NCBI GenBank assembly: GCA_006226595.1
Contig: SBGP01000043.1
Span: forward strand, 70,832-110,831
Length of the DNA: 40,000 nt
Direction of reading: 5' to 3'
Source of the DNA: Deltaproteobacteria bacterium
Lineage (GTDB): Bacteria > Myxococcota_A > UBA796 > GCA-2862545
Under the pieces are notes generated by a model that ran no database searches, was not told the DNA's origin, and saw only the letters and a list, made by a program, of their open reading frames with translations. Below, piece by piece: positions 12,888 through 33,400 of this stretch. How positions within the stretch are numbered: position 1 is the stretch's first letter; each line of letters starts with the position of its first letter. A program made the translations under genes and the position numbers.

Positions 12888-13532
12888 CTACTGCCGTTGG
12901 CGCTCGATGTCGATGACGATGGGACAGTGGTCCAGATTGTGGTGCTCGAAGAACTCCGTACGGTACTCGGCACGCACAACCCGCACAGCTCCCCGGATGA
13001 GGGCGTGGTCGATGTTCGAGCCCTCTTTGCTCCCGCGATTGAGGTAGCTGGGACCGCCTTCCGGGGTGACGAGGCTCCATCCCTCCAACCGTTGCCGGTC
13101 TCGCGGCTGGTTTCTGGAGGGGTCGATGTTGAGATCCCCGATGGCGACGTCGCCGTCCAGACGCTCACGCAACGCCGCCCAGTACCGAGTCCAGTCCTTG
13201 CCCTTGTAGTAGGGGGCGCGGAGTCCCGTAATCACTAGGCCGTTCCACTCCACGGATAAGAAGCCGGCGAGGGCGCAGGTATCGGGAACCGGGAGCAGCG
13301 CCGGGCGCGGGAACGGGCGCGAGCCGGATAGCGCAATCACCTGGTTGTTGAAGTAGCCTCGCCGGTACTCAATCTGCGGGCTGCACAGCGTGTGCCGCCA
13401 ACGAGCCTCGAGAGCGCTCCGGTACTCCCTGGTGTCGACGTACTCGGTCAGGAAGAAGAGGTCGCAGCCTAGGTTGGCGATGTCGTCGAGTAGCCGCTCC
13501 GCTACGGCTCGACGTCTGACCTGGTGCCCCAC
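12888..13532 (-). CDS. endonuclease/exonuclease/phosphatase (EEP) family protein, 214 aa; true start may be upstream
   Basis: EEP hallmarks in order: 'DLFFLTEY', 'VAIGDLNIDPS', 'GSNIDHALIRG' and 'DHCPIVIDI'. The frame stays open upstream ('LEVNVHRIGALNV') with the usual N-terminal beta-strand but without ATG/GTG/TTG, so the start is uncertain. Confidence 0.75.
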   Translation of the reverse strand: MGHQVRRRAVAERLLDDIANLGCDLFFLTEYVDTREYRSALEARWRHTLCSPQIEYRRGYFNNQVIALSGSRPFPRPALLPVPDTCALAGFLSVEWNGLVITGLRAPYYKGKDWTRYWAALRERLDGDVAIGDLNIDPSRNQPRDRQRLEGWSLVTPEGGPSYLNRGSKEGSNIDHALIRGAVRVVRAEYRTEFFEHHNLDHCPIVIDIERQRQ

Positions 13533-13584
13533 GTTGAGGGCACCGATGCGATGGACGTTGACTTCCAGGAACTCTCCCAGCGCC

Positions 13585-13872
13585 CTATCGCCGATGCGGG
13601 TGCATACGGGTCTGGGTGCTTTCGTTGAGCGCGAGCCATGGCTCGCCGCGGATCATGCGGATCTGGATGTCATATCCGTCGCCGTCGTCACGCTCTCGGA
13701 CGCTACCCTGCGCGGCGAGCTCGGACATCGGGAGTCGGAAGCTGCCGACGGCACGAACATTCCCGGATGCGTCGCGGTAGCTGAGCTCAAGGTCGAGGAC
13801 CTCGTCTCGTACACGAGTCGCGAAGTACCGGTCGGGCGCACCTCCCTTCGCGTTGATGGTCCAACGTCGCAT
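13585..13872 (-). CDS. hypothetical protein, 95 aa
   Basis: Track ORF 13585..13959 trimmed to 'MRRWTINAKGG...' (ATG 13872), preceded by GAAGGAG. It lies 11 nt downstream of the queC-like stop. Confidence 0.5.
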   Translation of the reverse strand: MRRWTINAKGGAPDRYFATRVRDEVLDLELSYRDASGNVRAVGSFRLPMSELAAQGSVRERDDGDGYDIQIRMIRGEPWLALNESTQTRMHPHRR

Positions 13873-13883
13873 CTGGCACTCCT

Positions 13884-14573
13884 TCACGCTTGGAAGGGCA
13901 ACTCTACCGTCGGGTGCCGGTCGGCGTACTCGCGAATGCCCTCGTTGCGAAGCAAGCACGCGGGACAGGAACGACAGCCCGCATGGGGAATGCCCTCGTA
14001 GCAGGTGATGGTCCGGTCGAGCAGGTACTCGAGCACTCCGTGCTCCGCCGCCAACTCGAGTGTGTCCACCTTGGTCATCGCCACCACAGGTGTGCGAATC
14101 TCAAACTCCGAGTCCCCGAAGTCCATGCGCAGAATCTGCTGCATCAGGTCCATGTACGCTCGCGAGCAGTCCCGGTACCCAGAGTTCGCGCTCTCGATTT
14201 CGATCACGCCCATGTAGATGCAGTGCGCGCCGAGGTGGTTGGCGTGGATGCCCGCGACACGAGCCATGAGGCCGTTTCGGCCCTGCACGAGTGTGTTCGG
14301 TGGAGAGCCGAGGGCGTGCTGGATGGCGATGCTCGAGTCCGTCAACGCGTTGACCGTGACCTCCGCCAGGCAGGTGATCGGAACGACCGTGTGGTCGACT
14401 CCCCACTTCTCGCAAATCTCCTGCGCTCGTTGGAGCTCGACGCTGTGCCGCTGCCCGTACCTGAACGACATGGAGAGGACGTGTTCGGCTCCGAACTCTC
14501 GGATGGCCACAGCGAGGCAGATCGAGGAGTCCATGCCTCCCGAGTGAACGACGACTGCGTGCTTCGGGGTCAT
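13884..14573 (-). CDS. queC: divergent QueC-family PP-loop ATPase (7-cyano-7-deazaguanine synthase paralog), 229 aa
   Basis: Track ORF trimmed to 'MTPKHAVVVHSGGMDSS' (SGGxDS PP-loop). Also 'FRYGQRH', 'GYRDCS' and the C-terminal Zn cluster 'CYEGIPHAGCRSCPACLLR'. It differs from the second copy at otherwise conserved stretches, for example 'LVQGRNGLM' against 'YVPARNTVF'. Confidence 0.85.
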   Translation of the reverse strand: MTPKHAVVVHSGGMDSSICLAVAIREFGAEHVLSMSFRYGQRHSVELQRAQEICEKWGVDHTVVPITCLAEVTVNALTDSSIAIQHALGSPPNTLVQGRNGLMARVAGIHANHLGAHCIYMGVIEIESANSGYRDCSRAYMDLMQQILRMDFGDSEFEIRTPVVAMTKVDTLELAAEHGVLEYLLDRTITCYEGIPHAGCRSCPACLLRNEGIREYADRHPTVELPFQA

Positions 14574-14592
14574 GACAGCTTCCACGATGGAG

Positions 14593-15750
14593 CTACTGTG
14601 CCGGTGAGGGCGAGACACCGCGCTGAGCGCCCCAGCGGAGGAAGCCCTCCGGGTCGCCCTGCACCGCGGCGAGCAACTCCGCGGGGATGACCCCTGCACG
14701 GAGCTTCACCACGACCGGATCCTGCCCGAGCACCTCGGCTGCCCGCTCGAGCGTGTCCACGCTCAGCGGCTTGGCGCCGCTCTCCACTCGAGAGAGGTAC
14801 GAGTTTCCGATCGCGAGGCGGTCGGCCATCTCGCTCTGGCTGATATTGCGAGCCAGGCGCTGGGCCTTCAGCCAGGTGCCGAAGTCCTCGGCTTCCTTGG
14901 TGGGCGAGGTCTGCAGGGCCAAGCGGCCCTGGGCGTCGTCAGCGTCTTCCGCCGACCAGCTCAGGGCGGCAAAGGCCGAGTGATTGTGGATGGACTCAAA
15001 GTTCTCGGCGGCCACGTGGACCTCGTGTACGCCCTCGAGCTTGCGAACCGCGGTCACCACATCGCGGACAAGGTCCTCGACGAACTTTGGGTTCTCGTAG
15101 GCCTTCTCGGTGACCCACTTTTCGTCCTCTCGCTTGAGCAGCGCATAGAGCGGCGAGGAGCCGCAGGCTTCGACCGCCTCGACCACGTCCTCGATCCACA
15201 CGAGCTGGCGTGACCGGAGCTTCACCTGGATCAGGCTTCGCTGGTTGTGGGCACCGTACTCGCTGATGGACTTCGAGCACGGGCAGAGGCTCTTTACCGG
15301 AACGGTGACCCGGAGTTCGAAGTCCTCCACAGGCCCCCGTCGGGAAGCCTTGAAGCCGCAGTGGTACTCCATCAGCGAGCGTGCCCGGCTCACGGGAGCC
15401 TCCTTCTCGATGAAGTAGGGGAACGTCATCTCGATGAACGCGTCGTCGGCCTCCAGCTCGCGCTGGACCTGGGCGAGAATCCCGCCGATGTTCCGGATGG
15501 TGAGTTCGCCGCGCACCTGATTGAGGATCTGGACGAAGCGACTCATGTGCGTGCCCTTCTGATCCGCCGGGAGGCCCACGCACATCTCGATCTGGGCCAC
15601 CGTGCCCTGCATCTGGTTCTGCTTGTCCATGACCTGGATGGGGTAGGACAGGCCGCGGATGCCGACGCGCTCGATGGCGATTCCGCGCTCGTCTGACTCG
15701 CTCGCGTGGTCGGGAAGGTCAGCGAAGAGGTTCAGGGACTCGGACATCAT
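14593..15750 (-). CDS. folE2: GTP cyclohydrolase FolE2 (type IB) fused to a C-terminal XRE/Cro-type HTH domain, 385 aa
   Basis: Start at the ATGATG at 15750, overlapping the queE stop. FolE2 body: 'GIRGLSYPI', 'KGTHMSRF', 'SLCPCSKSISEYGAHNQRS', 'ENFESIHNHSAFA'. The C-terminal 96 aa (14593-14883) contain 'FGTWLKAQRLARNISQSEMADRLAIGNSYLSRVESGAKPLSVDTLERAAEVLG'. Confidence 0.9.
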   Translation of the reverse strand: MMSESLNLFADLPDHASESDERGIAIERVGIRGLSYPIQVMDKQNQMQGTVAQIEMCVGLPADQKGTHMSRFVQILNQVRGELTIRNIGGILAQVQRELEADDAFIEMTFPYFIEKEAPVSRARSLMEYHCGFKASRRGPVEDFELRVTVPVKSLCPCSKSISEYGAHNQRSLIQVKLRSRQLVWIEDVVEAVEACGSSPLYALLKREDEKWVTEKAYENPKFVEDLVRDVVTAVRKLEGVHEVHVAAENFESIHNHSAFAALSWSAEDADDAQGRLALQTSPTKEAEDFGTWLKAQRLARNISQSEMADRLAIGNSYLSRVESGAKPLSVDTLERAAEVLGQDPVVVKLRAGVIPAELLAAVQGDPEGFLRWGAQRGVSPSPAQ

Positions 15751-16388
15751 GGGATCCCGATGAGCTTGTGGGTCTGAAGGGACAGGCGCCATTTGGGATT
15801 GGCCAGGCAGTAGCGGGTGGCGGCTTCGATGTTGGCCGCGGTCCGTCCTTTGGCGTCCATGGGCTGCAGGAAGAAGTGCTCGAAATCGAGGTGCTCGAAG
15901 TCAGTGGGGCTAAGCTCGGGCTGAGGGTAGACGAGCTTCAGTTCGTGGCCCTCGGTCTGGACGATCTCGGAGCGAGGCTTCGGGCTCACGCAAATCCAGT
16001 CCACGCCGGCAGGAACCTTACCGGTCCCGTTGGTCTCCAGGCCGACTTCGATTCCGGCGGCGTGGCAGGCGTCGACGAGTTTCTTGTCCAGTTGGAGCGT
16101 GGGTTCACCGCCCGTGAACACCACGTAGGGGACGCCCCCGCTGCACTCCTCGTCCCAGCAGCGACGAAGGTGATGTGCGAGTTCCGCGGCATCGCGGAAC
16201 TTCCCGCCGCCCGGGCCGTTCGTGCCCACGAAATCCGTGTCACAGAAGCGACAGGCTGCGGTGCTGCGATCCTCCTCGCGACCGCTCCACAAGTTGCAGC
16301 CCGCGAAGCGGCAGAAGACCGCGGCTCGGCCCGCGTGGCCACCCTCACCTTGGAGCGTCAGGTAGACCTCTTTGACCGCGTACGCCAT
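15747..16388 (-). CDS. queE: 7-carboxy-7-deazaguanine synthase QueE (radical SAM), 213 aa
   Basis: 'EVYLTLQGEG', the cluster motif C-x14-C-x2-C ('CNLWSGREEDRSTAACRFC'), 'VVFTGGEPTLQ' and the C-terminal 'RLSLQTHKLIGIP'. Confidence 0.93.
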   Translation of the reverse strand: MAYAVKEVYLTLQGEGGHAGRAAVFCRFAGCNLWSGREEDRSTAACRFCDTDFVGTNGPGGGKFRDAAELAHHLRRCWDEECSGGVPYVVFTGGEPTLQLDKKLVDACHAAGIEVGLETNGTGKVPAGVDWICVSPKPRSEIVQTEGHELKLVYPQPELSPTDFEHLDFEHFFLQPMDAKGRTAANIEAATRYCLANPKWRLSLQTHKLIGIP

Positions 16389-16391
16389 CGG

Positions 16392-17087
16392 CTATGCCAC
16401 CGAGACGTAGCGAGTTGGGTCTGCCATACCGACTTCCTCGAAGCCATCGCGTCGGAGAATGCACGCATCGCACGTCCCACAAGCCACCCCGTCGGACGAC
16501 GGCGCGTAACAGGAGTGGGTGAGCTGGTAGGGGACACGGAGCTCGCGGCCGATGGCGATGATCTCGGCCTTGGTCTTGTCGATCAGGGGTGCATGCACGC
16601 GGATGTGCTGCCCCTCGACGCCGGGCTTGATGGCGAGGTTGGCCATGGCCTCGAAGGCATGGATGTACTCGGGGCGGCAGTCGGGGTAGCCGGCGTAGTC
16701 GAGCGCGTTGACGCCGATGAAGAGGTCGGAGGCCTCGTAGACCTCCGCCACGCCAAGCGCGTACGACAGGAAAACCGTGTTTCGGGCGGGCACGTAGGTG
16801 ACCGGAATCTGGCTCGTCATCTGTTCGAGCGTGCGCGACTTCGGCACGTCGATGTTGTCCGTGAGGGCGGAGCCGCCGATTTGCCGGAACATGCCCACGT
16901 CGAAGATGAGGTGCTCGACGACGTTGTAGTGCTGGGCGATCGCCATGGCGGCTTCGAGCTCGACCCGGTGGCGCTGGTCGTAGTTGTACGACACGACGAC
17001 CGGCTCAAAACCCTGGTCAATGGCCATCGCCAGGCAGGTGGCGGAATCGAGTCCACCGCTGAGCAGGATCACCGCACGCTTCCCCAT
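16392..17087 (-). CDS. queC: 7-cyano-7-deazaguanine synthase QueC (canonical-looking copy), 231 aa
   Basis: Trimmed to '[19 protein letters not shown]'. Also 'YNYDQRH', '[12 protein letters not shown]', 'GYPDCRPE' and the Zn site '[21 protein letters not shown]'. Confidence 0.93.
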
Positions 17088-17172
17088 GTCGACCTCCGAA
17101 GTGGCTTGGGGTATACCGGCGTTGCCCGGTCGAGTCAACGGCCATTTTCCCTGTCAGGTCAACGGAGAGAAC
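17088..17172. promoter_or_regulatory. Divergent queC / queD control region with a direct repeat GTCAACGG x2
   Basis: An 85-bp gap separates divergent starts at 17087 (-) and 17173 (+). GTCAACGG occurs at 17134-17141 and 17158-17165, 24 bp apart. The second copy abuts the queD SD (GGAGAG). No promoter hexamers could be assigned confidently. Confidence 0.35.
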
Positions 17173-17601
17173 ATGGTCACCGTCACCCGCCGCCTCGAGT
17201 GGGACGCCATGCACCGCATCCCGCTGCACGAGAGCAAGTGCAGGGCCTTTCACGGTCATCGCTACGTGGCCGAGATCACCTGTGTGGCGCCTCAGCTGGA
17301 CGAGCTCGGCCGCGTGGTGGACTTCGGGGTCATCAAGTCGCTGGTGGGGACCTGGATCGACGACCACTGGGACCACACTGCCATTCTGATGAGTGGCGAC
17401 CCGGAGGCGACGCCGATCGCCGAGGCCAACGAGCGACTGGGGAGGCCGGTCTACTGGATGAAGGCTCACCCCACCGCGGAGAACATCGTCAGCGAGCTCG
17501 CGGGGGTCGCGCAGCGTCTGCTTGACCCCACGGGGGTGACAGTCGTTCGGATTCGACTGTGGGAGACGCCCAACGGGTCGTCCGAATGGACCCTTGGGTG
17601 A
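17173..17601 (+). CDS. queD: 6-carboxy-5,6,7,8-tetrahydropterin synthase QueD, 142 aa
   Basis: Track ORF 16984..17601 trimmed to 'MVTVTRRLEWDAMHRIP'. Zn/catalytic motif 'CRAFHGHRY', 'VVDFGVIK', 'DHWDHTAIL' and 'RLWETPN'. Confidence 0.92.
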   Translation: MVTVTRRLEWDAMHRIPLHESKCRAFHGHRYVAEITCVAPQLDELGRVVDFGVIKSLVGTWIDDHWDHTAILMSGDPEATPIAEANERLGRPVYWMKAHPTAENIVSELAGVAQRLLDPTGVTVVRIRLWETPNGSSEWTLG

Positions 17602-17678
17602 GTGCTCGGCGCCGGTCTCCATGAAGAGATGCTGCGGGTCGCTGGTTGTGCTTGGTAGCATCGCGGTCTGGAGACCCG

Positions 17679-19040
17679 ATGACCTCGAACCTTGAACTCG
17701 TTGAAGCGCTTCGCGTTTGCTGCGCTGGTGCACTGCCATCACTCGTGCGATCCGTCGAGGACGTGCATGACCTTGCGGTTTGGGGCATGGCACATCCTGA
17801 CCCGGAGGTAGCTCGCGATGCTGCGAGCTTGGCGGGATGGTTCGCCTCCGTGTCTCGGGTTGAAGCGGCGCTTCGCGAACTCGTGGCGGAGACCCTGGAC
17901 TCGCAGGTGTTGGTGGCCGCCAACGTCTCACTCGGCGAGTTTTCGGACCTCGACACGGTCGAACTTGCTGCGGCGATTGAAGACCGGGTCGACGTTGCCG
18001 CGCGTGCTGTGTGGACCACCCTCGCCTGGCACGATGAGTACGTGGACGACGCAGTGGCCATCGTGAGTGAATGGGGTGCCGTGGAGGAGTTGGCGAAGCT
18101 CGCCTGGGACTGCGGCGAGCGGGCGGAGCGCGCTGCCCCTTTGCTCGCGCGCAGGCAGGAACCGGAGGCTCTGGAGGCGCTTGAGTGCGTCCTCGACGGG
18201 GGAGACTACGCGGCTCTCTACGCACTGCGAGATGGACTCGCGCTGCGCGAAGACCCGCGTTCGATCGGGATCCTGCTCACTACCTGGGACTCAATGGTTC
18301 GGGGGGACGAGTGTGGAGCTGACTGCGCGGAAGAGGCCACTGCGCTCGTGTTGTCCCTCGGTTCGACAGCCGAGGGGCGCGATGAACTGGTCCGAGCCGC
18401 GGAAGTTTCGTCGACTGCTGTACTGGCTAGGAGTTTTCTTGCCGCGCTCGAGGGGACACCAGACACACTCGCGGAGTTTCGCTCAGAACTCGAAGGCGAG
18501 GATCCCGATCTCTATCCGGGCGCTGCGCTCCTCGAAGGCCGTGAACTGTACTGCTCACAGCTCTCGGGGCCGGACCTGCTTGAGCAGCGGCAGCCGGCGT
18601 GGTGGAGCCTTGGGAAGCGGGCCGAAGGCGACATCTCCCCCATCCCGTCGGTCCAGATCACAAAGGCCGCCTGGCGATGGCTTGAACCCGTCCAGGAGGA
18701 CCAGGAAGTCAGCGAATGGGTTGACGCGCCAGAGATCGCGACCCTCGGAGAGTTTGCCGTGCGATGGGTCGGCGCCCTACAGGACCGTGCCATCGAGAAG
18801 TTCGTGATCGAGGGCCGTGAGCAGATCGACTACATCGAGCCCATCCGCGACGCGTGGCGCGAGCTCGACTTTCCGAAGGGGGTGTTTGAGGCCTCGCCTG
18901 GTCAAGTGGACCCGGCATGGGCCCGGGCGCTCTGGCGAGCCAGCCGCATCCTTCCGGGCGATCCAGAGTGGTGGCTCGCCTGGCTGGTCTGGACCCTCTC
19001 CGAACCACACAGCGCCGTAGATTCTCGCTTGGGCGACTGA
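17679..19040 (+). CDS. hypothetical acidic protein, 453 aa (464 aa if the TTG at 17646 is used)
   Basis: Track ORF 17646..19040. The ATG at 17679 is preceded by GGAGA. The protein is helical, Leu/Ala/Glu-rich and Trp-rich at the C-terminus ('PEWWLAWLVWTL'). No recognisable domain. It lies 77 nt downstream of queD on the same strand. Confidence 0.6.
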   Translation: MTSNLELVEALRVCCAGALPSLVRSVEDVHDLAVWGMAHPDPEVARDAASLAGWFASVSRVEAALRELVAETLDSQVLVAANVSLGEFSDLDTVELAAAIEDRVDVAARAVWTTLAWHDEYVDDAVAIVSEWGAVEELAKLAWDCGERAERAAPLLARRQEPEALEALECVLDGGDYAALYALRDGLALREDPRSIGILLTTWDSMVRGDECGADCAEEATALVLSLGSTAEGRDELVRAAEVSSTAVLARSFLAALEGTPDTLAEFRSELEGEDPDLYPGAALLEGRELYCSQLSGPDLLEQRQPAWWSLGKRAEGDISPIPSVQITKAAWRWLEPVQEDQEVSEWVDAPEIATLGEFAVRWVGALQDRAIEKFVIEGREQIDYIEPIRDAWRELDFPKGVFEASPGQVDPAWARALWRASRILPGDPEWWLAWLVWTLSEPHSAVDSRLGD

Positions 19041-19062: not shown

Positions 19063-20163
19063 TCAGGTGTTCGCCTGATCCCGCACCCACCGTTGATACT
19101 GGCGAGTCAGGTGGTTCGCGAGGAGGTTTACGTCCTGGCTGGTGTTCTGCACGTCATCCCAGCGTCGCTTCACATCTCCACCGAAGTCCCAGTAGCCCTC
19201 GTTCCAGCGACAGTGAGGCTTGATCCCGGCCAAGTGGGTGGTGAAGTCCTCTTCGGTCGGCCAGCGGTCCCGGAACCCATCGGAGATGGCGTCCATCAGG
19301 AAGCCGAGGGTGACCACACCGGCGCCGTGAAGCAGACGGGACTGGCGCGGCTTCAGATCCCAAAGCTCCGGCCACGTGCGACGGACAGCCGACCAGTACC
19401 CAAACAGGACTTGCTGCATCACCGTCTGGGCCTGGTCCGTTTCAAGCAGGCGGATGCGGTACAGGACGCCGTCCGACAGGCTGTTCTCGAGGAAGCGCAG
19501 GATCGAGTTGTCCTTGATCTTGGCGCCCGGGTTCGTGGCCGTGGAGATGGCCTGGTACAGCGGGGAGTCTTCCCGATGGTTGAGGACCTCGAGGATCGAA
19601 GCGGGCAACTTCCGCTTGTCGAGGTGGCTCGGCATCCGGGCGTCGACGCCCGGGAGAAGCTCGTAGATGAGGTTCTTCGGTAGCGGCTTGGTCGAGTTCA
19701 CCAGCATGAACTGCTCTCGGGCTTCCGAGTCCGACTCGGCGACGAAGCCGATCGCGAACATCGGGAAAGTCTCGACCCTGGCCTCGCGAATCGCGGCGAT
19801 CCGCTGCTGCCCATCCACGATCCAGCCCACCTTGTCCTCGGGGTCGACCGGGACCTTCAGGACGCCATGGGTACTTGCGCCATCCGCAGAGCTACCGGTG
19901 GGTTCGAAGCGCACTCGGGAATCGAAGGCTAGCACCAGGGCGTTCGGCACCATGGGCTCCTCACTCTCCACGTACGCTCGGATCTCCGCGATGTGCTTGC
20001 GCACCTCGGGCCGCTGGTAGCCGAGCAAGCGTCCGTCCTCGTCTCGGGACACTCGGGAGACCGAGGCGAAGGTGGGAATCGACTTCGCGTCTACGCCGAA
20101 GGCGTAGATGGTCTTGCCGGGGCTCTGGCTCAACGCCAGGGCGGGGATGTCCAAGACAGTCAT
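19063..20163 (-). CDS. dpdB: DGQHR-domain (DndB/DpdB-like, ParB-fold) protein, copy 1, 366 aa
   Basis: Trimmed to 'MTVLDIPALAL...' (ATG 20163, ATGA overlap with the dpdA stop). Motifs: 'SVSRVSRDEDGRLLGYQRPEVRKHI', 'GWIVDGQQRIAAI', 'FMLVNSTKPL', 'YWSAVRRTWPELWDLKPRQSRLLHGAG'. Confidence 0.8.
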   Translation of the reverse strand: MTVLDIPALALSQSPGKTIYAFGVDAKSIPTFASVSRVSRDEDGRLLGYQRPEVRKHIAEIRAYVESEEPMVPNALVLAFDSRVRFEPTGSSADGASTHGVLKVPVDPEDKVGWIVDGQQRIAAIREARVETFPMFAIGFVAESDSEAREQFMLVNSTKPLPKNLIYELLPGVDARMPSHLDKRKLPASILEVLNHREDSPLYQAISTATNPGAKIKDNSILRFLENSLSDGVLYRIRLLETDQAQTVMQQVLFGYWSAVRRTWPELWDLKPRQSRLLHGAGVVTLGFLMDAISDGFRDRWPTEEDFTTHLAGIKPHCRWNEGYWDFGGDVKRRWDDVQNTSQDVNLLANHLTRQYQRWVRDQANT

Positions 20164-21431
20164 GTGGAGCTTTCCTCGAGTGCGGAACGGTGTGCGTGTA
20201 GCACTTGTTGGGTGTGCCAGAGGTTGTGGAAGCCTCGGCGGCGGTTCCTGTTGGCGCCGCGGAAGACGATGACGTCGATGCCGAGGTCGCGGCAGACCGC
20301 ACACGGGCAGTTCTCCCAGGGACGGTCGGTGAGGGTCCGGCGGATGCGGTCCCACCTGGACGCTCCGCCGTACAACTCCTCGTAGGCCTGGAGATGCCCA
20401 AGGGCCTCGTCGACGCTGGTCGTGCCCTCACCTACGCCCTTCACGGCGTCCTGGCACGCGCGTTCTTTCCTGAACGCCTCCTGCTGGTTGACGGCGCCGC
20501 TGCGGATGGCTCGAAGCAACTTCGAATACTTGTCGGCCTGCGGGATGCGGACGGCGGTGTAGTGGCCGAGGGGGTCGGAGGAGTAGTAGTTGTTGCGGGC
20601 ATCCTTGAAGGCCTGGCGCATCGGAGAGGCGCTGTCCAGGCTCACCACACCAGCTCGCGTGTACGCCTGGAAGTTCTCCAAGCGGGTGATGCCGAACAAG
20701 TGGAGGCGCAGTCGACCTTGGGTGACGCCCCGGACTGCCTCCAGTACCTCCAGGATCTGGTCGGTCTTCAACGGGACCAGACCCCCGAGAGCCACGTAGT
20801 CGTAGCCCATGGCGATCAGCTGCTCGACCGCGCGCGAATAGGAGCGCGGCGACCAGCCCTGGGCAATTCCAACCGGCTGGAAGTCATAGTTGCCGGCTCG
20901 GACCTTCCGCAGAAACTCGGCGGCGAGCGTGAGCGTCAGGTCGAATCGCTGCTGGAACTCGGGAGGAACGGCGTTGCCGAGCAGCCCTGGTTCATCGAGC
21001 TCTGGACTATAGGCGCCAATCATGTGGTCGACGGACACGCCGTGCGTGAACTGGCCTGCTTCGTAGAAGTCGATCACCTCGTCCACCGAGTAGGGTGGCT
21101 CCGGTAGATCTCGGTAGTTGAAGGCACCGCAGTCGCCGAGCAAAGGCCAGTCTGCGGGCTCGAACTCGGGTTGCGTCGGGAAGCGCAGGAACCGACGCGC
21201 GCCGTTCCTCATGAAGCGTAGGCGTTGGGCCTGGGTGTAGCGGCCTTGGACGCCGTCCATGTCGAGCAGGAACTTGCTGACCAGGAGGCCGTCGTACGGA
21301 CGCTCCGGCGCCATGAGCTCGTGCGCATACACGTCGTCCCGCTGCGGGATGCGGTCCCGGGGCGAGGTTTCGGTCTCGAAGTCGAAGCGAGGGTCGACGA
21401 GGTCGAGTGCGTCAGCGTAGAAAAACCGCAT
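20160..21431 (-). CDS. dpdA: DpdA, TGT-fold DNA 7-deazaguanine (preQ0) transglycosylase, 423 aa
   Basis: TIM-barrel TGT-like features: 'YDYVALGGLVP', 'LHLFGITR', 'VSLDSASP' and the Zn knuckle 'CPCAVCRDLG...NRRRGFHNLW'. It sits between DGQHR genes next to preQ0 biosynthesis genes. Confidence 0.85.
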   Translation of the reverse strand: MRFFYADALDLVDPRFDFETETSPRDRIPQRDDVYAHELMAPERPYDGLLVSKFLLDMDGVQGRYTQAQRLRFMRNGARRFLRFPTQPEFEPADWPLLGDCGAFNYRDLPEPPYSVDEVIDFYEAGQFTHGVSVDHMIGAYSPELDEPGLLGNAVPPEFQQRFDLTLTLAAEFLRKVRAGNYDFQPVGIAQGWSPRSYSRAVEQLIAMGYDYVALGGLVPLKTDQILEVLEAVRGVTQGRLRLHLFGITRLENFQAYTRAGVVSLDSASPMRQAFKDARNNYYSSDPLGHYTAVRIPQADKYSKLLRAIRSGAVNQQEAFRKERACQDAVKGVGEGTTSVDEALGHLQAYEELYGGASRWDRIRRTLTDRPWENCPCAVCRDLGIDVIVFRGANRNRRRGFHNLWHTQQVLHAHRSALEESST

Positions 21432-22552
21432 CAGGACCGGTGAAGCGCCAGCGTGTACTCGCGCATGAGGTGGTTGGTGAGAAGCCGGACGCTCTTAGGC
21501 GTGTTCTCGATTTCCTTCCAGTGAAGATCGCCCAGACCCTCCCAATGCCCCGAAGTCCACCGGCAGAGGGGTGCAACTCGGGCGACTTCGACGAGGGCGT
21601 GCTCGTAGAGACCCTCAGAGGATGGGTTTGCGCGGCCCATCACCTGGTCCATCAGTCCACCCAGGGCCTTGATGCCAGCGCCGTGCATCAGCCGGCTGCG
21701 CGTGGGCTTTAGCCCCCATGCTTCGGGGAAGGTGTCCCGGACAGCGGACCAATAGGCGATGAGCAGCGCAGTGACGGCCTCCGTGTCCGTTTCCCCCGTC
21801 GCCATGTTTCGGAATGGAAAGAGGCAGCCGCCAGGCTTGGTGAGCCGTTCCTTGATCATGTCCACCACGGCGGTGTCGTTGACGACAGCGTCCTTGCTGT
21901 TCCGCGCGGAAGGCCGAGCGATGAGGCCCTTGAACGGGCTCTCGGGGTGGCGGTTCAGCAGGTCGCAGATGGCCGACGGCAGTTTCCTCACCGACAAGCG
22001 CCGGGGCAGGTCCGTGTCCACATTCGGGAGCAGTTCGGTAATCAGCCGACGGGGCAGGGGACGCGTGTTGTTCACGCGAAGGAACTGGTCTCGCTGCGTC
22101 GCGAGGTCTCCTCCCATGAAGGCGACCACAGGGATGGGGAGGTCGGATGACTTCGTGCGCGAGAGGGCGATTGCGCGCTGCTGTCCATCCACGATCCACC
22201 CGGGCGGGCTGCTGGTGTCCGGAACGGAAATGTCGATCACGCCGCTGATCGCCAGCCCGTCGTCCGTCATCGGGCCTCGGGACTTCCGGAACGAGAGCCC
22301 CCATTCGAACGCGAGGATGATGGCGTTCGGAAATAGGACCTGGCCGGAGTCGACGTAGTCCTGAATGTCCTGGATGTGCTGACGAACCTCGTCGCGCTGG
22401 TAGCCGATGAGCTCGCCATCGTCGTCGCGACTCACCCGCGAGATGGACGCCACCTTCAGCAGCTCGTGCGGTGCGAGAGCGAAGACGTACACCGGGTGCT
22501 CATCGTGCTGCTTGAACTGCAGCGCGCGTCGCGAGATCTCGATGGGCTTCAT
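21431..22552 (-). CDS. dpdB: DGQHR-domain (DndB/DpdB-like) protein, copy 2, 373 aa
   Basis: Trimmed to 'MKPIEISRRALQF...' (ATG 22552, ATGA overlap upstream; the stop shares 1 nt with the dpdA ATG). Motifs: 'SISRVSRDDDGELIGYQRDEVRQHI', 'GWIVDGQQRAIAL', 'FLRVNNTRPL', 'YWSAVRDTFPEAWGLKPTRSRLMHGAG'. It aligns by eye with copy 1 along the whole length. Confidence 0.8.
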   Translation of the reverse strand: MKPIEISRRALQFKQHDEHPVYVFALAPHELLKVASISRVSRDDDGELIGYQRDEVRQHIQDIQDYVDSGQVLFPNAIILAFEWGLSFRKSRGPMTDDGLAISGVIDISVPDTSSPPGWIVDGQQRAIALSRTKSSDLPIPVVAFMGGDLATQRDQFLRVNNTRPLPRRLITELLPNVDTDLPRRLSVRKLPSAICDLLNRHPESPFKGLIARPSARNSKDAVVNDTAVVDMIKERLTKPGGCLFPFRNMATGETDTEAVTALLIAYWSAVRDTFPEAWGLKPTRSRLMHGAGIKALGGLMDQVMGRANPSSEGLYEHALVEVARVAPLCRWTSGHWEGLGDLHWKEIENTPKSVRLLTNHLMREYTLALHRS

Positions 22553-23529
22553 TCCTGGTCCCCTTGAATACGTCGGAACAGCCGGCCGAACTTCTTCTGC
22601 TCGTACGCAAAGCCGGCGTCGCGAAACTGCCGAAGAGCCGCGCTCGCGGACGTCGGTGGCGTTTCGCTCGCCAGGGCCTCTCGCACCCAGTTCTCCACCT
22701 GCCACTCATGCTGCCGGAGCCGCTTCGGGTAGGTGGTCGCGGGTGCTTCCTCCAAGACGTCGGCCATGACCTGTCGGCAGCGGCCCGGCGTGAGGTCCGC
22801 CGGCGTCGCGGCCTGCTCCATCACGCGAGCTAGAGCCCGAACGGTCAGCTGTCCGGTTGGACCGCCAAGCACGCTTCGCATCCTTCCCTCGAGTGGGACG
22901 GCGGACGTGCCGAGGGCATCGATGGCTTCGGTGTCGGTGGTGAACACCGAAAGTGCTCTGGCTCCCAACTGCGCTTGCAGGACCTGCAGATCCGGCAAGA
23001 CGACGCGGAGGTACTCGCCAGGGAGGGCGACGACGATTCGGTCGTCGTCTTCTGCCAATCCGCGGAGTGCATCGCGTCCGCCGATCATCTTCCACCAGGC
23101 GAGCCGTCCCGAGTGACCGCCGGGCCCGTCCCCCCCGGGGACGGTGTCCGAGTGTCCCGGGTTGAAGGTCGCGGCATAGGCGGGCACGGCATCCGTGAAC
23201 TCCCGCAGCCCTACACCCGCGCTTGCGACCCAAGCGCGGACCGGCAGATGCGTGTCGTGAACCATCTGGCGCGCGACGGACCAGTATCCGCCCTTGTACA
23301 GGCGGCTGATCTTCACGCGGTCGTCCGCCGCGTTGAGTTCATCGAGCCAGGAGAGCGCGGCGATGTGTGGCAGCAAGTGCTTGTGCTGACGAACCCGTAG
23401 TTGCTTCTTGGGTACGAGCGTCTTGGACGCCGTGCACGCGAGCACGCAATGGACCACTGATTCCCCCCGGGGCCTGCTTGTACAACGGGTCGAGCTCGCA
23501 CGCAAGAAAGTGCAGCACATCATGCTCAT
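22549..23529 (-). CDS. first gene of the modification operon; DpdC-position protein of unknown fold (326 aa; likely 302 aa from GTG 23457)
   Basis: Complete track ORF. The first 24 aa ('MSMMCCTFLRASSTRCTSRPRGES') look non-native, and GTG 23457 follows 'GGGGGGAA'. The core begins 'VVHCVLACTASKT'. Assignment to DpdC rests on operon position only. Confidence 0.55.
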   Translation of the reverse strand: MSMMCCTFLRASSTRCTSRPRGESVVHCVLACTASKTLVPKKQLRVRQHKHLLPHIAALSWLDELNAADDRVKISRLYKGGYWSVARQMVHDTHLPVRAWVASAGVGLREFTDAVPAYAATFNPGHSDTVPGGDGPGGHSGRLAWWKMIGGRDALRGLAEDDDRIVVALPGEYLRVVLPDLQVLQAQLGARALSVFTTDTEAIDALGTSAVPLEGRMRSVLGGPTGQLTVRALARVMEQAATPADLTPGRCRQVMADVLEEAPATTYPKRLRQHEWQVENWVREALASETPPTSASAALRQFRDAGFAYEQKKFGRLFRRIQGDQE

Positions 23530-23719
23530 GTGGGTCTGCAGTTATGTGTTCACGCGTCTCCGTAAATCGCTGAGCCCGCAATCCGCAGTGGTCCGCAGTT
23601 GAAAGGCCGCCGGAGGTCTATGTAGAACTCCCCCCAGGGTTGAGGGGACGAGATGGCTGTGCTCGCGCGCCGACATCGCTTCTGGTGGGTTCCGTTCCGC
23701 CGGCTGAGCAGGTGTTCTA
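23530..23719. promoter_or_regulatory. Divergent control region between the modification (-) and helicase/ATPase (+) operons, with tandem TCCGCAGT repeats
   Basis: This 190-bp gap looks like one of the more AT-rich stretches of the island by eye. 'aTCCGCAGTggTCCGCAGTtg' lies at 23581-23600, with a third partial copy 'TCTGCAGTT' at 23535-23543. A candidate -35 'TTGAAA' at 23599-23604 follows immediately. A candidate minus-strand 'TTTACG-16-TAACTG' lies near 23540-23567. Confidence 0.4.
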
Positions 23720-26700
23720 TTGGCACCTAAGTTCGTGATTGGCCGGAAGGGCGGGTGGGGTCCTGGGAGATTGCTGTCACGGGATGGTCCGAACATCACC
23801 GTCGAACACTTCGTGAAGCCCGCCTCCTCTGGTCAGGTCAGGAAGGTCGTCCGGAGAGTGTCTGACGCCGTCCAGTGGACGCCAACGGTTCGCACTCGCC
23901 TGTACTTCGAGGACAAAGCCGGCCGTTGGCACGTTGGCTTGTTCCGCTGGGTGGACGACTTCACTGGCGACTACGTGTTGCAGGTTCCTGGCCAGGAGTT
24001 CATCCAGGTGGATCCACGCCGCATTCACGTACGGTGGAGGGGGGCCAGGGCAAATCCGCGTACAAACCTTGGTAACCACTTCTTGGAGTCGCCCCTCTAC
24101 CACAATGCCCGCCGGCGTCTGGTTCGTGCTTTGGGCGAGCAGAGGGCACGGGCTGGCGGCATGACCGGGCTGTTGTCCGCCTCTGTCGAGTTGTACCCCC
24201 ACCAAGTCGAAGTGGTCCGCCGTGTGCTGCAGGACCCCGTGCTTCGCTACCTCCTCGCCGATGAGGTTGGTCTGGGCAAGACCATCGAGGCCGGGGCCAT
24301 CATTCGCCAATACCACTTGGACCGGAGCCGAACGATCAGTCGCTCACACACCATCGCCATCGTCGTCCCTCCAGCGCTAACGCACCAATGGCGACACGAG
24401 TTGGCGACCCGCTTTCAACTCGACCCGCGCGTGACTCCTGGTCTACGACTCCTGGATTTCGAGGATGTCGAGAACGGAGAGCTGCCTGATAGCGTAGGTC
24501 TTTTGGTAGTCGATGAGGCCCACCATGTCGCTCGGCCGAAACCTCGTGCTGGGAGCGCTTCGGCCCTGATCCAGGAGGCGGCGCTCAGCGCGCCGTCGTT
24601 GCTGCTCCTCTCCGCCACCCCGGCCCTGCACAACGAGGCCGCATTCCTGACCATGCTGCACATGCTGGATCCCACGATGTACGACGTCTCGGATGTAGAA
24701 GGGTTCCAGGAGCGACTTCGATCTCGCACCGAACTCGCAGAGGCGTTCTCGGACTTCCACGAGGGGGCTGACCCCGATGAGCTGGAGGAGGTCTCGGCGC
24801 TGTTTCGGGAGATGTTTCCGGCAGATACCCGTCTCGCGAACCTGCTCGACCAGGTAGACGACGCCGTCGAGGGGGCTATCGACGTGAACGAGGCTGCTCG
24901 CGGGGCCGTGCGGGCCGCGCGAGTCCACATTGGAGAGACGTACCGGCTCCATCGACGTGTCTTGCGGAATCGGCGCGGCGGTGCGAGCGTGGAGTACCCC
25001 GTACGCGGCCGAAGTGGCCTGACCGTCGTCAGGTATGTTTCTTCGGCGGAAATTGAACTCGACTCCATCCTCGAAAACTGGCGGCTCGACGCGCTCGTCA
25101 GGTGTGCCTCTGGGGACCGCCGCGTGTACGCGGACGCCTACCTGCGGTTGCTGCAGGCGCGGCTTGAGGGTGACAGCGCGCTCGCCGAGGCGGCCTCCGA
25201 GGTCTCTGGGGGCCTTCCGTCGATGGCTCACCTGTCGGCGGAACTGAGGGAACAGGCCCTGGAACTCTCGGCCTCTCGGGACCGCGTTCTCGCGTTTCTC
25301 GACTGGCTGCGTGAACGCGAACACGGACCCTGCCGAATCGTTGTGTTCGCTGACGAGACGCCTGGTCTTGCCGAGGACTTTCATGGGAAGACCGGCTTTA
25401 GTCTGTTCAGACTCCACGGTCGGATGAGTCGTGTCGCCATTCGGGATGTCATCCAGTCCTTCGAGGCCACGGAACGCTCGGTCCTTCTGTGCGACGAGGC
25501 GGGGGAGGAGGGCGTAAACCTCCAGTTTGCCGATCATCTCGTCCACTGGAACTTGCCCGCCTCACCCAATCGCATCGAGCAGCGGATGGGCCGACTTGAC
25601 CGCCACAACGATCGCGACCGGCCCGCGGTGCCCGTGACGGCGTTTCTGCCGAGTGACGCGGATGCATCTCTGCCGGGCGCCTGGCTGGAGTGGCTCGACG
25701 GTGCCCTCTGCGTGTTCGACCGGTCTGCCTCGTCGCTGCAGTTCTTCCTCGATGGATTGATGCCGGATGTCTGCAACCAGTTCTTCGATGACGGTCCGGA
25801 CGGCGTACGAGTGCGTCTGAAGGGGGATAGGCAGAGCATCGACCTCGAACGGCGGACAATCGCCCGTCACCAGAATCTGGACGCGATCGAGGCCTCGATG
25901 TCCCCCGCTCAACAGATTCTGGACAGGGTTCGCGAGGCGGAAGTGGAATGGCGACAACTTCAGGAGGACGTCGAGGAGTGGGTGGTGCGGACCCTGCAGG
26001 CAAGGAGGGAGACTGATGGCCGACGCGCTGGGTCTCCCGTGAGATACCAGTTTCCTCGGGAGAGCCATGTTCCGAAAACTGACCTGGGCACCTACTTTTC
26101 GGGTTGCCTGTCCGTAGAGGATGAGCATCTGCGGACCACTCCCGTGACGGCGTGGATGACCTTCGACCGCGGCTGTGCGGTCGCCTCCGGGACGACGATT
26201 GCCAGGCCTGGATCCGACTTCCTGGAGAGTCTGACGGCCTACCTCGACTGGGATGATCGGGGCACGGCCTACGCGATGCTTCGCTTCCGGCCCGGCGTCG
26301 AGAAGTTGGAGCCCCCCCCCGTCGTATTCCGATTTGACTTCGTCGTGAGCGGACAAGCACGCACGGCTGCCGACGTGGTGGAGTACCGGCTGGCGAGAAA
26401 GGCGGTGGAGCGCCGCATGGACGAGCTGTTCCCGCCGCTCGTGCATACGGTGTGGATTGATCAGGGGGGACGTGTCGTCGCGGACGAACGCCTGCTCGCC
26501 GTTTTGAGAGAGGAGTTTAGGAAGCGGCGAAGAGTCGATACCGTGGGGTGGGACTTCGACCTCGGTAACCTCTGGAGCGTAGACGACCGAGAGCCCCGGG
26601 CGGCTGTACCTCGAAGGCACCAGAAACTGGTGAAGCCAGAGCGACGTCGACGTGTGAAGGAGATGGCTGCTGCGTGGGGCGCCCGAGGTCCGGTCTCCGA

Positions 26701-30437: not shown

Positions 30438-33400
30438 GTTGCAGCGCTATTGGCCCGAGCGCGTCCAGGGCACATCGATCATCAACGCGGATGCGGACGT
30501 GATCCAGGAGCCTTCTGTGGTCCTGGCTACGCATCAGGAGGTGACTCTTCTCAAGCAGTCCGTCGACCTGGTGGCGGGTGACGGAGCCCAGGGCGTGGAG
30601 GTCTCAGAGGAGGAGTTCCTGGACTACTTCCTCCAAGACTGTGACAACGCCAACATGCTCGCACCCATCACGGGTAGGTCGGGGTGTGGAAAGTCACACT
30701 TCATCGTCTGGCTCGAGGCTCGGCTTCTTCGGCGTGACGATGCGGACCGAAGGCACATCATACGGATCCCCAAGGGCGCCAGCTTTCGGTCGGTGATTCG
30801 GCGCATCTTGGCCGATCTGCGCGGTGACGCGTACACGGAGCTTCATGAGCGGGTCAAACGTGCGGGGAACTCGCTGACGACCAAGGCGGCGCGAGAATGG
30901 GTCGTTGCCGGTGTCAACATCGCCCTCGACAATATCCACGCGGACCTGACGGGAGCGCTCGAGCGCTACGCGGAGGTTCAGCGTACAGACGAAGTGAAAG
31001 CGCGGATTAGGGATCTTCAACAGCGACTCCGGCATGCGACGGGCCTGCAGGCATTGTTGTCCGACAATCTGTTCAAGCGAGATCACTTCTTCGCCGAAGG
31101 CCAGGCGATTGATCGCATCGCGGTGCGTATCGTGCACGGCAAGAAGCGCTCGGCGGATCCGATTGAGTTCCAAGTAGCGGCAGAGGATTTCGTCCTTCCT
31201 GAGGAGCTCGAGCGGCTGGTCAGCACGTCCGCCGGTGCGCCTGCGCAGGCGTATTATCAGTGGCTGATGGGCGAGACCCAGCGGAATCGCGACAAGCGCG
31301 CTCTTGCGGCCCAGGTGATGAATCAAGCACTCGACCTTGCCATTCCCCGGGTATTGCAGCTCGGCGACAACGAGCTCAATGAAGTCCTAAGGGCGATTCG
31401 AGAGCAGCTCGAGGAAGAGGGACGTGAGTTGGTGTTCCTCGCCGAGGATTTCTCTGTGCTGGCGGGTATCCAGGGGGCCCTGCTCGACGCCATGACCGTA
31501 CCGCGTGGCGGCGCCGGCAGACCTTTGTGCGTGATGCGCACGGCCTTGGCGGTGACCGACGGCTACATCAGTGAGCGGGACACCATTGCCACCCGGGCTC
31601 GATTTCAGTTTCGCATGCCCGAAAGGGTGGTCGACCAAGAGACGATTGTCGATTTCGTTGCGGAGTACTTGAACGCGGAGCGGCATGGGACAGTTGACCT
31701 GAACGCATGGTACCGCGAGCAGGCGGATGGACCATCGTCTCCCCTGCTGCCACCACTCGAGATAGTCGACTTGGATCGCGAGTACCTGGATGCCTTCGGC
31801 TATTCGACCCGGGGGATCCCGCTCTTCCCGCTCAGCCGAACGGCGATTCGAGAAATTCTGAGGGTGAAGCTGCGGACCGAGGGGGGCGGGCTCGTCTTTC
31901 ACCCGCGCACCATCGTGAACCATGTGCTCATCGAGGTGTTCAAGAACCACGCGCGAAGCTTTGCGCATGGTCAGTTTCCGCCGGCTGCGTTCGAGTTGTA
32001 CAAGGAAAGGCCACTCGACTCGATGGCGCCCTTGCTGACCTCCCAAGTAATGCGGCTGGCGCCTACTCACTCCGATGGTCAGCGCTGGCTCGTCCTTCTC
32101 CGGTTCTGGGGAGGGGCACCTATCGACATGACCGAGGCCCGTTCCCTGAATGCTCGGGTGTACGAAGCCTTCGGGCTCCCGGTGCTCCCGGGTACAGCGG
32201 TCAACCAGGTCGGACCGGGAACCTCAGCGGCAGAGGGGTCGGGCAGGCGTTCTGCCGAAGTTTTGATGCCGATATCAGGGCCTTCAGTGGATGCGCCAAC
32301 CCCCGGAACTGGCTCAAGTCCAGGGGCGGGTCTGAGCCCGGGACCGAGTCCGAGTCCGAGTCCTGGGGCGGGTCACAGCCCGGGGCCGAGTCCGAGTCCT
32401 GGGGCGGGTCAGAGCCCGAGGCCGAGTCCGGGAGCGGCACCGCGTCCGGGCGCCGGTTCGACGCCCACCCCGGGAGCGGGGCCAGGGCAGGGGGGCACCC
32501 CCGCTGAACCCATTCAGCAGTGGGACAGGGTTCTCACGGAGTGGCGGAATGGGGCGATGTTGCCGACGGAACAAGCGAATTTACTTCGGACTTGGGTCCT
32601 CGGTCTCGTGCTGCGCCACGTGGATTGGGAGGCTGAGGGACTGCGGCAGCCGGTCGCCAGCCTGGGCGCGCAGAAGAAGGTGTGGCTTGGCGAGGCAGCT
32701 GCGGGAGGAATCGCCGAAGGGGCCTGCCATATCCGCGTAGGGGGGTTGGAGGTGGACACGGACGCCGACCGTCATGGCCTTCACCTCGCCCTGCAGGGGC
32801 TGGTTCGGTTCGAGTTGGGTGGATGGCGGTTCGATTTCGAGAACGCGGATGTCTTGTACGAGCACCTCATGGCTCGCCTAGCGACCTGGCATGCGCAGTT
32901 CGTCGAATGGTATCGGGCTAGCTGCCCCGACCTAGTTGTCGCAGAGGTCAAATTGCTTTCTGCTCTAGCGGTCATCGAGCGCGGTTCCATGATGACCCTT
33001 GAGGACGTTGGCGATCTGTTCGAACGTCACCGTTCGAACGCGGGGGGGCCTGTCGCGTGGCGCGACCTGCATCACGCTCTCGACTTCGAGCGCGCCAGTC
33101 GCATCGATCTACTGCTCGGATTGGTGGGGATTTTTCAGGGAGGGCATGTGGATGCGCGGCAGAACCAGCAACTGCTCGCTCTGGACGGGTGGCGCATCCT
33201 TTGTGCCATGGAGGGCCTGGAACCGTCAGTGTGTCCGGAGATTTCCGGGCTCTCCAAGAACAAGACGTACCAGAGAAACACCGAAGAGGCAGCCAGGGAG
33301 GTGGCCAAGCGTTGGACTCATGCGCTGGCCGCGCAGCGATCCTGGCTCCGCATGCAATCGGAGCGAGTGCTGACGTCCATTCCGGCGGATGCTGGCTCCC

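Follow-up and report, generated by a model that had tools for sequence, protein, structure and literature searches.

The stretch of DNA analysed here, referred to as the window, comprises 40,000 bp of contig SBGP01000043.1 (positions 70,832 to 110,831) from the Deltaproteobacteria bacterium assembly GCA_006226595.1, and carries a gene, folE2-HTH, in which GTP cyclohydrolase IB (FolE2), the enzyme at the entry to the preQ0/7-deazaguanine pathway, is joined to a C-terminal helix-turn-helix (HTH) module of the XRE type. The fusion is real, widespread and seemingly undescribed, and its mechanism class, the enzyme-repressor fusion, is a familiar one. We propose, at a probability of about 0.6, that the protein is a bifunctional enzyme and autorepressor (a 'trigger enzyme') controlling preQ0 supply, whose HTH would bind a conserved tandem palindrome at its own promoter and repress transcription from it. 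Searches of the full text of about 8 million papers and preprints retrieved nothing that describes a fusion of FolE2 with an HTH or a protein that regulates preQ0 synthesis, and the author of an earlier note on this DNA, made from the sequence alone, had not met such a fusion either. In the source databases the proteins are called 'GTP cyclohydrolase I FolE2' and nothing more, so that their regulatory half is invisible there.

A GTP cyclohydrolase with a C-terminal HTH module

The fusion gene lies in a single open reading frame (ORF), listed as 14593–15792 on the minus strand, that contains no stop codon or frameshift. This includes 14880–14960, where the earlier note had suggested looking for a break between two genes. 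Translation likely begins at the ATGATG at 15750/15747, which overlaps the stop codon of queE (ATGA/TGA), and the gene and its parts are as follows.

14593–15750, minus strand: folE2-HTH gene, 385 aa plus stop, third gene of the tight operon queC1-queE-folE2HTH-queC2
14959–15717, minus strand: GTP cyclohydrolase IB (FolE2) domain, residues 12–264, recognised by Pfam, NCBIfam, PDB matches and Foldseek
14884–14958, minus strand: linker, residues 265–289, about 25 aa, poorly conserved and variable in length
14623–14883, minus strand: XRE/Cro-C1-type HTH module, residues 290–376, a five-helix core with two conserved extra helices

Residues 12–261 match the Pfam family GCHY-1/FolE2 (PF02649; E = 1.6e-88, 297 bits against a cutoff of 25), and the NCBIfam equivalog model for FolE2 (NF010200) is matched at 272.3 bits against a cutoff of 215. 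Sequence matches of this domain in the PDB range from 1e-76 to 6e-66, and the solved FolE2 enzymes 2r5r, 8g6c and 3d2o align to residues 6–264. Since these solved proteins terminate a few residues past their ESIHNHSAYA motif, the residues that follow ESIHNHSAFA in the window protein are an addition. The earlier note had put this extension at about 96 aa and its actual length is 124 aa; the two strings quoted there, 'ESIHNHSAFA' and 'ISQSEMADRLAIGNSYLSRVESG', are both present in the protein. FolE2 is a homotetramer, and in the B. pseudomallei enzyme the metal ligands are Cys154, His166 and Glu208, with Cys156 and Arg205 as neighbouring conserved residues (PMC11573665). The catalytic residues of the window protein were assigned through PDB sequence alignment and the roles described for B. 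pseudomallei in that paper. The metal ligands Cys156, His168 and Glu210, together with Cys158 and Arg207, are intact in the window protein and invariant in 32 aligned fusions. An AlphaFold2 (AF2) model of the whole monomer has a predicted local distance difference test score (pLDDT) of 89, exceeding 90 over most of the FolE2 domain, and a predicted template modelling score (pTM) of 0.67. Foldseek aligns the domain with 8g8v, 8g6c, 3d2o and 2r5r at target-normalised template modelling scores (TM-scores) of 0.92–0.94 and root-mean-square deviations of 1.7–2.1 Å, and the bimodular T-fold is recognisable in the model. With its catalytic residues invariant and its model superposing on solved FolE2, the enzyme half looks fully functional, as judged from sequence and predicted structure.

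Model confidence drops at the linker (pLDDT 57–76), and the HTH module, when modelled alone, is predicted with seven helices at a pLDDT of 95.5. Pfam HTH_3 (PF01381) matches residues 294–345 (E = 5e-11, 42.9 bits against a cutoff of 23) and HTH_31 (PF13560) matches at E = 1e-10 (42.1 bits against a cutoff of 27), the HTH matches together covering residues 290–347; the NCBIfam RamB HTH model matches the module at 6.5e-7. The nearest structures found by Foldseek are ClgR (3f51), C.BclI (2b5a), C.AhdI (1y7y) and SinR (3zkc); C.Esp1396I and a mycobacterial XRE protein are also among the nearest structures, neighbours that reflect ordinary XRE-family similarity. Superposition of the module on the SinR–DNA complex, P22 c2, 434 Cro and C.AhdI gives deviations of 1.2–3.5 Å. 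Across the 32 fusions, F290, G291, W293, R298, the first Gln of helix 2 and the L-S-R-x-E of helix 3 are invariant or nearly so. Helix 1 is conserved as F-G-x-W-L and the recognition helix as L-S-R-x-E, while the linker varies freely, and the two extra helices carry the motif LRAGV.P..LL...Q.DPEGFL.W. The conservation pattern of the HTH sequences fits DNA binding.

A database of 5.8 billion clusters, clustered at 90% identity, was searched for homologues and the best 120 matches were examined. All 120 carry PF02649 together with PF01381/PF13560, at 56–71% identity to the query, and they derive from NCBI, JGI, ENA and Logan assemblies. The continuous ORF recurs at roughly 26 genome loci and roughly 17 metagenome loci. 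The search for this domain architecture, which the earlier note had recommended, therefore bears out the fusion it had read from the sequence, and the Pfam and NCBIfam matches lie above their cutoffs. That sequencing, assembly or gene calling had joined folE2 to a neighbouring regulator gene can be dismissed for practical purposes, given the continuous ORF, the same architecture in at least 120 clusters and the dozens of independent contigs. No split version turned up, and the one HTH-less member of the fusion clade ends after the linker with an unrelated gene next to it.

In a neighbour-joining tree built from the FolE2 domains of 64 loci, the 28 fused genes group together in one clade, within which the module has been lost once. 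The fusion is retained down to about 50% identity within this clade, which indicates long-term selection for it, and the sequences point to a fusion that arose once and was then long kept. The secondary loss of the HTH is seen in locus L023 (571–1400), where a FolE2 gene inside the fusion clade stops after the linker and has a glycosyltransferase-like gene next to it. The carriers are all metagenome-assembled genomes, mostly labelled Myxococcota, Nannocystaceae, Polyangiaceae, Bradymonadia or simply 'proteobacterium'.

A tandem palindrome at the promoters of the fused genes

Upstream of the fused genes is a 16-bp palindrome, TTG(C/A)C-N6-G(G/T)CAA, usually in two copies exactly 23 bp apart (start-to-start), and the pair overlaps or adjoins the -35 element of the fusion gene's own promoter. 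A palindrome was first suspected on inspection of the upstream regions, and the motif then emerged from an unbiased search, in which all 1024 5-mers were taken as inverted repeats with spacers of 0–12 and at most one mismatch, and lineage groups were counted, not loci. TTGCC-N6-GGCAA was the top inverted repeat, present in 9 of 19 lineage groups; the everted GGCAA-N7-TTGCC ranks equal because the two sites stand in tandem. As controls, 200 dinucleotide shuffles reached a maximum of 6 groups, and random real windows reached 9 in one of 200 draws. Allowing up to one mismatch, the upstream regions (7 kb) gave 13 matches and the remaining 503 kb gave 20, a 46-fold enrichment confined to a spacer of 6. 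Within lineages the arms are conserved and the spacers between them drift.

A symmetrised position weight matrix (PWM) was built from 18 sites and applied to metagenome loci absent from its construction. In nine of ten of these, a site with a score of 10 or more lies close upstream of the fusion operon, the background being 0.15 sites per kb, and most of the loci have two sites exactly 23 bp apart. Pairs at 23 bp stand directly upstream of the fusion gene or operon in L068, L072, L073, L075/L076, L082 and L084, and single sites in L071 and L077. The L084 pair is perfect, reading TTGACAGTTCGGTCAA-tcatggc-TTGACGTTATCGTCAA (N7 between), and so is that of L064. Pairs were then counted in 148 fetched loci (1.62 Mb), mostly unfused folE2 neighbourhoods, extending about 10 kb on each side of the gene. 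Nineteen pairs at 23 bp were present, and all 19 stand upstream of a fusion operon; five pairs at 24 bp all represent the same orthologous position of a single lineage, no other distance from 16 to 40 bp gave more than one pair, and no pair was found beside an unfused FolE2 gene. In many loci the proximal site opens with a TTGAC or TTGCC that serves as the -35, with a TAnnnn -10 following 16–18 nt later, so placed in the sequence that its position has the geometry of promoter occlusion. An Rfam scan of the window and six related loci detected no preQ1 or other riboswitch, and RNA-based control was dropped for this reason, leaving no alternative known regulator in view.

The window has operator-like sites at the corresponding place, the 85-bp control region between queD and queC1 (17088–17172), which contains both of them and reads ccgTTGACCTGACAGGGAAaatggccgTTGACTCGACCGGGCAAcgccggTATACC...GGAGGtcgacATG in the direction of the queC1 operon.

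17146–17162, unstranded: distal operator-like site, TTTCC-CTGTCAG-GTCAA (N7), or TTCCC-TGTCAG-GTCAA (N6, 17147–17162)
17122–17138, unstranded: proximal operator-like site, TTGCC-CGGTCGA-GTCAA, overlapping the putative -35 and spacer of the queC1 operon promoter
17110–17138, minus strand: putative sigma-70-type promoter of the queC1 operon, TTGACT (17138–17133), 17-nt spacer, TATACC (17115–17110)

The N6 form of the distal site has a PWM score of 10.0, the second-best in the window, and matches the position of the conserved distal site at other loci. The proximal site has a spacer 1 bp longer than the N6 consensus, fails the N6 PWM and is 24 bp from the distal site, the control region containing two copies of a 20-nt direct repeat at that distance. 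Written as TTKCC-N7-GTCAA, the two sites are the only perfect matches in the window, a search that is circular and shows only that there is no further copy. A GGAGG ribosome-binding site is found at 17097–17093. A strict sigma-70 consensus scan of 13400–17400 called no promoter, and for this reason the TTGACT-17-TATACC promoter is one that we infer from the sequence. As far as can be read from these letters, the layout and position of the window's sites are those conserved at other loci, but the sites themselves are weak or expanded by 1 bp. The best PWM match in the window is TTGTCGCAGAGGTCAA (32936–32951, score 14.7), which falls inside the dpdH coding sequence and is probably a chance occurrence.

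Our proposal combines these observations as follows. The protein would be a catalytically competent GTP cyclohydrolase IB bearing a C-terminal XRE HTH on a flexible linker and, because FolE2 is a homotetramer, each tetramer is expected to present four HTH modules, equal to two DNA-binding dimers. The two dimers would occupy the two tandem palindromes, with one tetramer probably bridging both sites. The proximal palindrome lies over the -35 and spacer of the predicted promoter, in a control region that is often common to a divergent queD, and binding would repress folE2 along with the co-transcribed or divergent queD, queC and queE genes. The result would be negative autoregulation at the entry to the preQ0/7-deazaguanine pathway. 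The predicted target in the window is the queD/queC1 control region (17122–17138 and 17146–17162), and the fusion would set the preQ0 supply for the Dpd DNA-modification machinery (DpdA/B/C), the dpd genes themselves not being directly controlled. Candidate operators are found at the promoters of folE2 and of queD, queC and queE. Of the features that define a trigger enzyme, the presence on one chain of a catalytic domain predicted to be active and of a DNA-binding domain is seen at the level of sequence and structure model.

Substrate, product or metal occupancy of FolE2 might modulate the binding, which is speculative. A tentative extension of the proposal, possible rather than probable, is that the FolE2 tetramer acts as an allosteric sensor, in which the four HTHs would shift, and operator binding be switched, when the active sites are occupied by GTP, by dihydroneopterin triphosphate, by an end product of the 7-deazaguanine pathway or by the catalytic metal. 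Such a protein would be the first protein-based feedback regulator of 7-deazaguanine synthesis, replacing preQ1 riboswitches in Myxococcota-like bacteria, and in islands where dpdC-dpdB-dpdA-dpdB come after the fusion gene it would tie modification-gene expression to precursor availability. The known control of queuosine/preQ0 synthesis is by preQ1 riboswitches, and regulation by Zur is what is typically described for folE2. If the autorepressor proposal is correct, it would add one more member to the small set of trigger enzymes, and would offer a direct way to study how GTP is apportioned to 7-deazaguanine synthesis by cells and by Dpd defence islands. It also makes a concrete operator prediction, TTG(C/A)C-N6-G(G/T)CAA twice at 23-bp spacing, which fits one FolE2 tetramer with two HTH dimers.

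Genomic contexts and alternative explanations

The window (65.9% G+C) is a complete Dpd (7-deazaguanine DNA modification/restriction) island, with dpdA-K recognised by NCBIfam and PADLOC. The operon queC1-queE-folE2HTH-queC2 runs from 17087 to 13884 on the minus strand, dpdC-dpdB-dpdA-dpdB occupy 19066–23529 on the minus strand, and dpdE-F-G-H-I-J-K are on the plus strand from 23720. The genes surrounding folE2-HTH in the preQ0 cluster are:

17173–17601, plus strand: queD (PTPS family; Pfam), divergent, with its control region in common with the queC1 operon
16392–17087, minus strand: queC1, first gene of the operon (Pfam QueC, 7e-75; NCBIfam TIGR00364, 204 bits)
15747–16388, minus strand: queE, radical SAM enzyme (Pfam), with orthologues in L001, L006, L064 and L068
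13884–14573, minus strand: queC2, second QueC paralogue and last gene of the operon (Pfam and NCBIfam), with 61% identical orthologues in L001 and L068

The two QueC paralogues are only about 30–35% identical to each other, and orthologues of queC2 at 54–61% identity are found in the Dpd islands L001, L002 and L068; since it recurs in these related islands, queC2 is a conserved island component. Its 3' end is overlapped by a 124-aa ORF without a family match (13585–13959, minus strand), and an Exo_endo_phos-family nuclease/phosphatase gene (12888–13532, minus strand) lies directly downstream of the preQ0 operon. Between queD and dpdB is a 464-aa ORF (17646–19040, plus strand) with coding-like codon bias, which has no match in Pfam, NCBIfam or PADLOC and no homologue among the 148 fetched loci. 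The two DpdB paralogues (DGQHR/DndB-like; 19063–20355 and 21431–22705, both minus strand) stand on either side of dpdA, and the order dpdB-dpdA-dpdB is repeated in L001, L002, L066, L069 and L071. No tRNA or transfer-messenger RNA (tmRNA) gene was found in the window.

The earlier note had linked the fusion to restriction-modification islands, and this does not hold for most carriers: dpdA or dpdB occur within 10 kb of the fusion in only 2 of the approximately 26 genome loci (L001 and L002). Further Dpd-linked fusions are found in L066/L067, L069 and L071, still a minority. The co-occurrence with dpdA/dpdB expected of a Dpd component is thus lacking at most genome loci, though the window itself is a Dpd island, and the fusion gene is a preQ0-supply gene that some Dpd islands carry. 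Outside dpd contexts it stands alone among housekeeping genes, with only a divergent queD (L007–L010, L012), or in a queC-queE-folE2 operon. The L064 locus, for example, has queD and, alongside it, a queC-queE-folE2HTH cluster without dpd genes, and queD is divergent from the fusion gene or operon in many loci. Clustering of the neighbours at non-dpd loci revealed no further conserved partner, the genes present being heterogeneous housekeeping genes (epimerase, FabH-like, acyl-CoA ligase, XseA). The closest relative of the window protein, P0002 (71% identity), is on a contig that begins inside queE and so offers no promoter sequence for comparison.

In L001/L070, L002, L066/L067 and L069, dpdC-dpdB-dpdA-dpdB are encoded downstream of the fusion gene in the same direction, the gaps being 65–90 bp, and from this gene order the modification genes of L001, L002, L066 and L069 might be co-transcribed or co-regulated with the fusion gene. 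It is this possible co-regulation that remains of the suggestion in the earlier note that the fusion keeps restriction from outrunning modification, an idea that finds no direct support in the window. Two related islands have an inverted repeat followed by a T-rich stretch between folE2-HTH and dpdC, which could be a terminator, an attenuator or an operator and would determine if transcription of the fusion gene extends into the modification genes.

AACTAC-N(23-24)-GTAGTT repeat: L001, 11129–11164; L070, 7129–7164; L002, 2681–2715

About 3.5 kb past the dpd modification genes, L001 also has a tmRNA (ssrA) gene (19200–19561); ssrA genes are commonly reported as integration sites for genomic islands.

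Several observations weigh against the autorepressor proposal. The window's own sites are weak, the distal one (10.0) scoring below every training site and the proximal one fitting only a 7-nt spacer; their distance is 24 bp and not 23, and the pattern count over the whole window is at chance level, so that location alone is informative. Among the fused lineages, no good site was found in L006, L080 or the L020/L025 group. The left arm doubles as a -35 consensus, so part of the motif's conservation is simply promoter conservation, and the motif is assigned to the HTH by co-occurrence. Covariation between recognition helix and operator is suggestive only: F/Y before L-S-R/K tends to go with GTCAA/GACAA arms and Pro-containing helices with GGCAA, but L003, L017 and L084 are exceptions, and for this reason the trend was not used as evidence. 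Lastly, an exhaustive HMMER search with the module alone returned mostly fusions and fusion fragments, along with a few short proteins that possibly stand alone, and since such apparently stand-alone homologues exist the module does not strictly need the enzyme. Two short proteins, P0139 and P0154, have the HTH module after a seemingly decayed FolE2 C-terminus in which the ESIHNH motif is destroyed, and may be fusions that decayed into stand-alone regulators.

The setting of the window raises the alternative that the fused HTH is a controller of the restriction-modification type, regulating the dpd modification and restriction operons, for instance through the dpdC/dpdE control region (23530–23719). 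It lies inside a complete Dpd island, its module is structurally close to C.BclI, C.AhdI and C.Esp1396I and matches the PADLOC 'Control_protein' model at 4e-6, and in L001/L070, L002, L066/L067 and L069 the operator-bearing promoter could drive the downstream modification genes as well. We nevertheless consider this unlikely. Most fused genes have no dpd gene nearby, so the fusion did not evolve for dpd control, and the likeness to C proteins is one common to the XRE fold, ClgR and SinR being equally good matches. In the window the dpd modification operon is a transcription unit separate from the preQ0 operon, the restriction-side genes dpdE-K are 8 kb from folE2-HTH and behind another promoter region, and 23530–23719 has no operator-like site: there is no pattern match within it, and the best PWM score in 23500–23720 is 0.3, against 10.0 at 17147. 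Of the two candidate operators put forward in the earlier note, 17134–17165 overlaps both sites described above, and 23581–23600 is unlike the conserved motif. The latter is ruled out as a FolE2-HTH site, as it bears no likeness to the palindrome and GTCCGCAGT-like words occur in the window at chance frequency (16 observed, 17 expected). The dpdC/dpdE region does have repeats of its own, namely three GTCYGCAGT words within 66 bp (starting at 23534, 23581 and 23591) and an inverted repeat, TAGAACTCC/GGTGTTCTA, at 23623–23631 and 23711–23719. They are unrelated to the FolE2-HTH palindrome, and some other regulator of the dpd operons could act there.

Slightly less probable again is that the HTH binds DNA elsewhere, the tandem palindrome belonging to an unlinked regulator or being a promoter feature (tandem -35 boxes). 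TTGAC and TTGCC do resemble a -35, the window's sites are poor matches, and a view of some 10 kb on each side of the genes leaves distant targets out of sight. A -35 box does not explain, however, why the right arm is conserved at a fixed N6, or why the palindrome is the top-ranked inverted repeat with arms that are conserved while the spacers vary within lineages, and among the fetched loci the pair stands beside fused genes only, never beside unfused ones. It is also improbable that the module has ceased to bind DNA and serves in oligomerisation, in protein interaction (for example, recruiting QueD or QueE) or as an enzyme tail gating the active site. Some HTH domains have been turned to protein contacts, no role is assigned to the two additional conserved helices (LRAGV.P...DPEGFL.W), and with a pTM of 0.67 the arrangement of the two domains is left undefined by the model. 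Against this, the canonical DNA-contact positions are kept (the first Gln of helix 2 and the S-R-x-E of helix 3), the core superposes on DNA-bound SinR and P22 c2 at 1.2–1.4 Å, and the fusion-specific palindrome would be left unexplained.

Comparison with known systems

Canonical FolE2 proteins convert GTP to dihydroneopterin triphosphate as homotetramers. Those of N. gonorrhoeae (3D2O), B. pseudomallei (8G6C) and N. europaea (2R5R) are 45–50% identical to the N-terminal 264 residues of the fusion in the Foldseek alignments, and have in common with it the bimodular T-fold, the metal ligands and the catalytic motifs. They end just past ESIHNHSAYA, whereas the fusion continues for 124 aa with the linker and the XRE HTH. 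Canonical folE2 is typically reported to be under Zur control, and the predicted regulator of the fusion gene is the enzyme itself. A functional analogue of the proposed control is provided by the preQ1 riboswitches, which exert feedback on queCDEF-type preQ0/preQ1 genes; these are RNA-based and sense preQ1.

Among stand-alone XRE proteins, ClgR of Corynebacterium glutamicum (3F51) and the actinobacterial 5WOQ are the best matches in structure and sequence that cover both the HTH core and the C-terminal helical extension. They are about 100 aa long, have about 27% identity to the module, and differ in their operators and regulons. In XRE-sensor proteins (the XRE-cupin proteins PsdR and PuuR, and RamB), an XRE HTH is coupled to a metabolite-binding domain and controls adjacent metabolic genes. 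Their HTH is N-terminal and the partner domain non-catalytic, whereas in the fusion the HTH is C-terminal and the partner an apparently active enzyme.

BirA, PutA and NadR are bifunctional enzyme-repressors (trigger enzymes), and by analogy the fusion likewise has a pathway enzyme and a DNA-binding domain on a single chain, the genes of its own pathway being the predicted targets of repression. There is no homology between them: enzyme, pathway and HTH class all differ, the HTH of the fusion being C-terminal and XRE-type. The C proteins (C.AhdI, C.BclI and C.Esp1396I) have the XRE five-helix fold in common with the module (target-normalised TM-score 0.7–0.8). C proteins bind as two dimers on two adjacent palindromes upstream of their own gene, and C.Esp1396I has been solved as a tetramer on natural operator DNA (entry 3clc). 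Fusion loci have an analogous pair, two 16-bp palindromes 23 bp apart, the likeness being one of arrangement. C proteins are small, stand-alone and co-transcribed with a restriction gene, features that the fusion does not have; its HTH is carried on a 264-aa enzyme, its site is at a preQ0-supply promoter, and most of its homologues are outside defence islands. The fusion thus belongs to neither the BirA/PutA/NadR group nor the C proteins.

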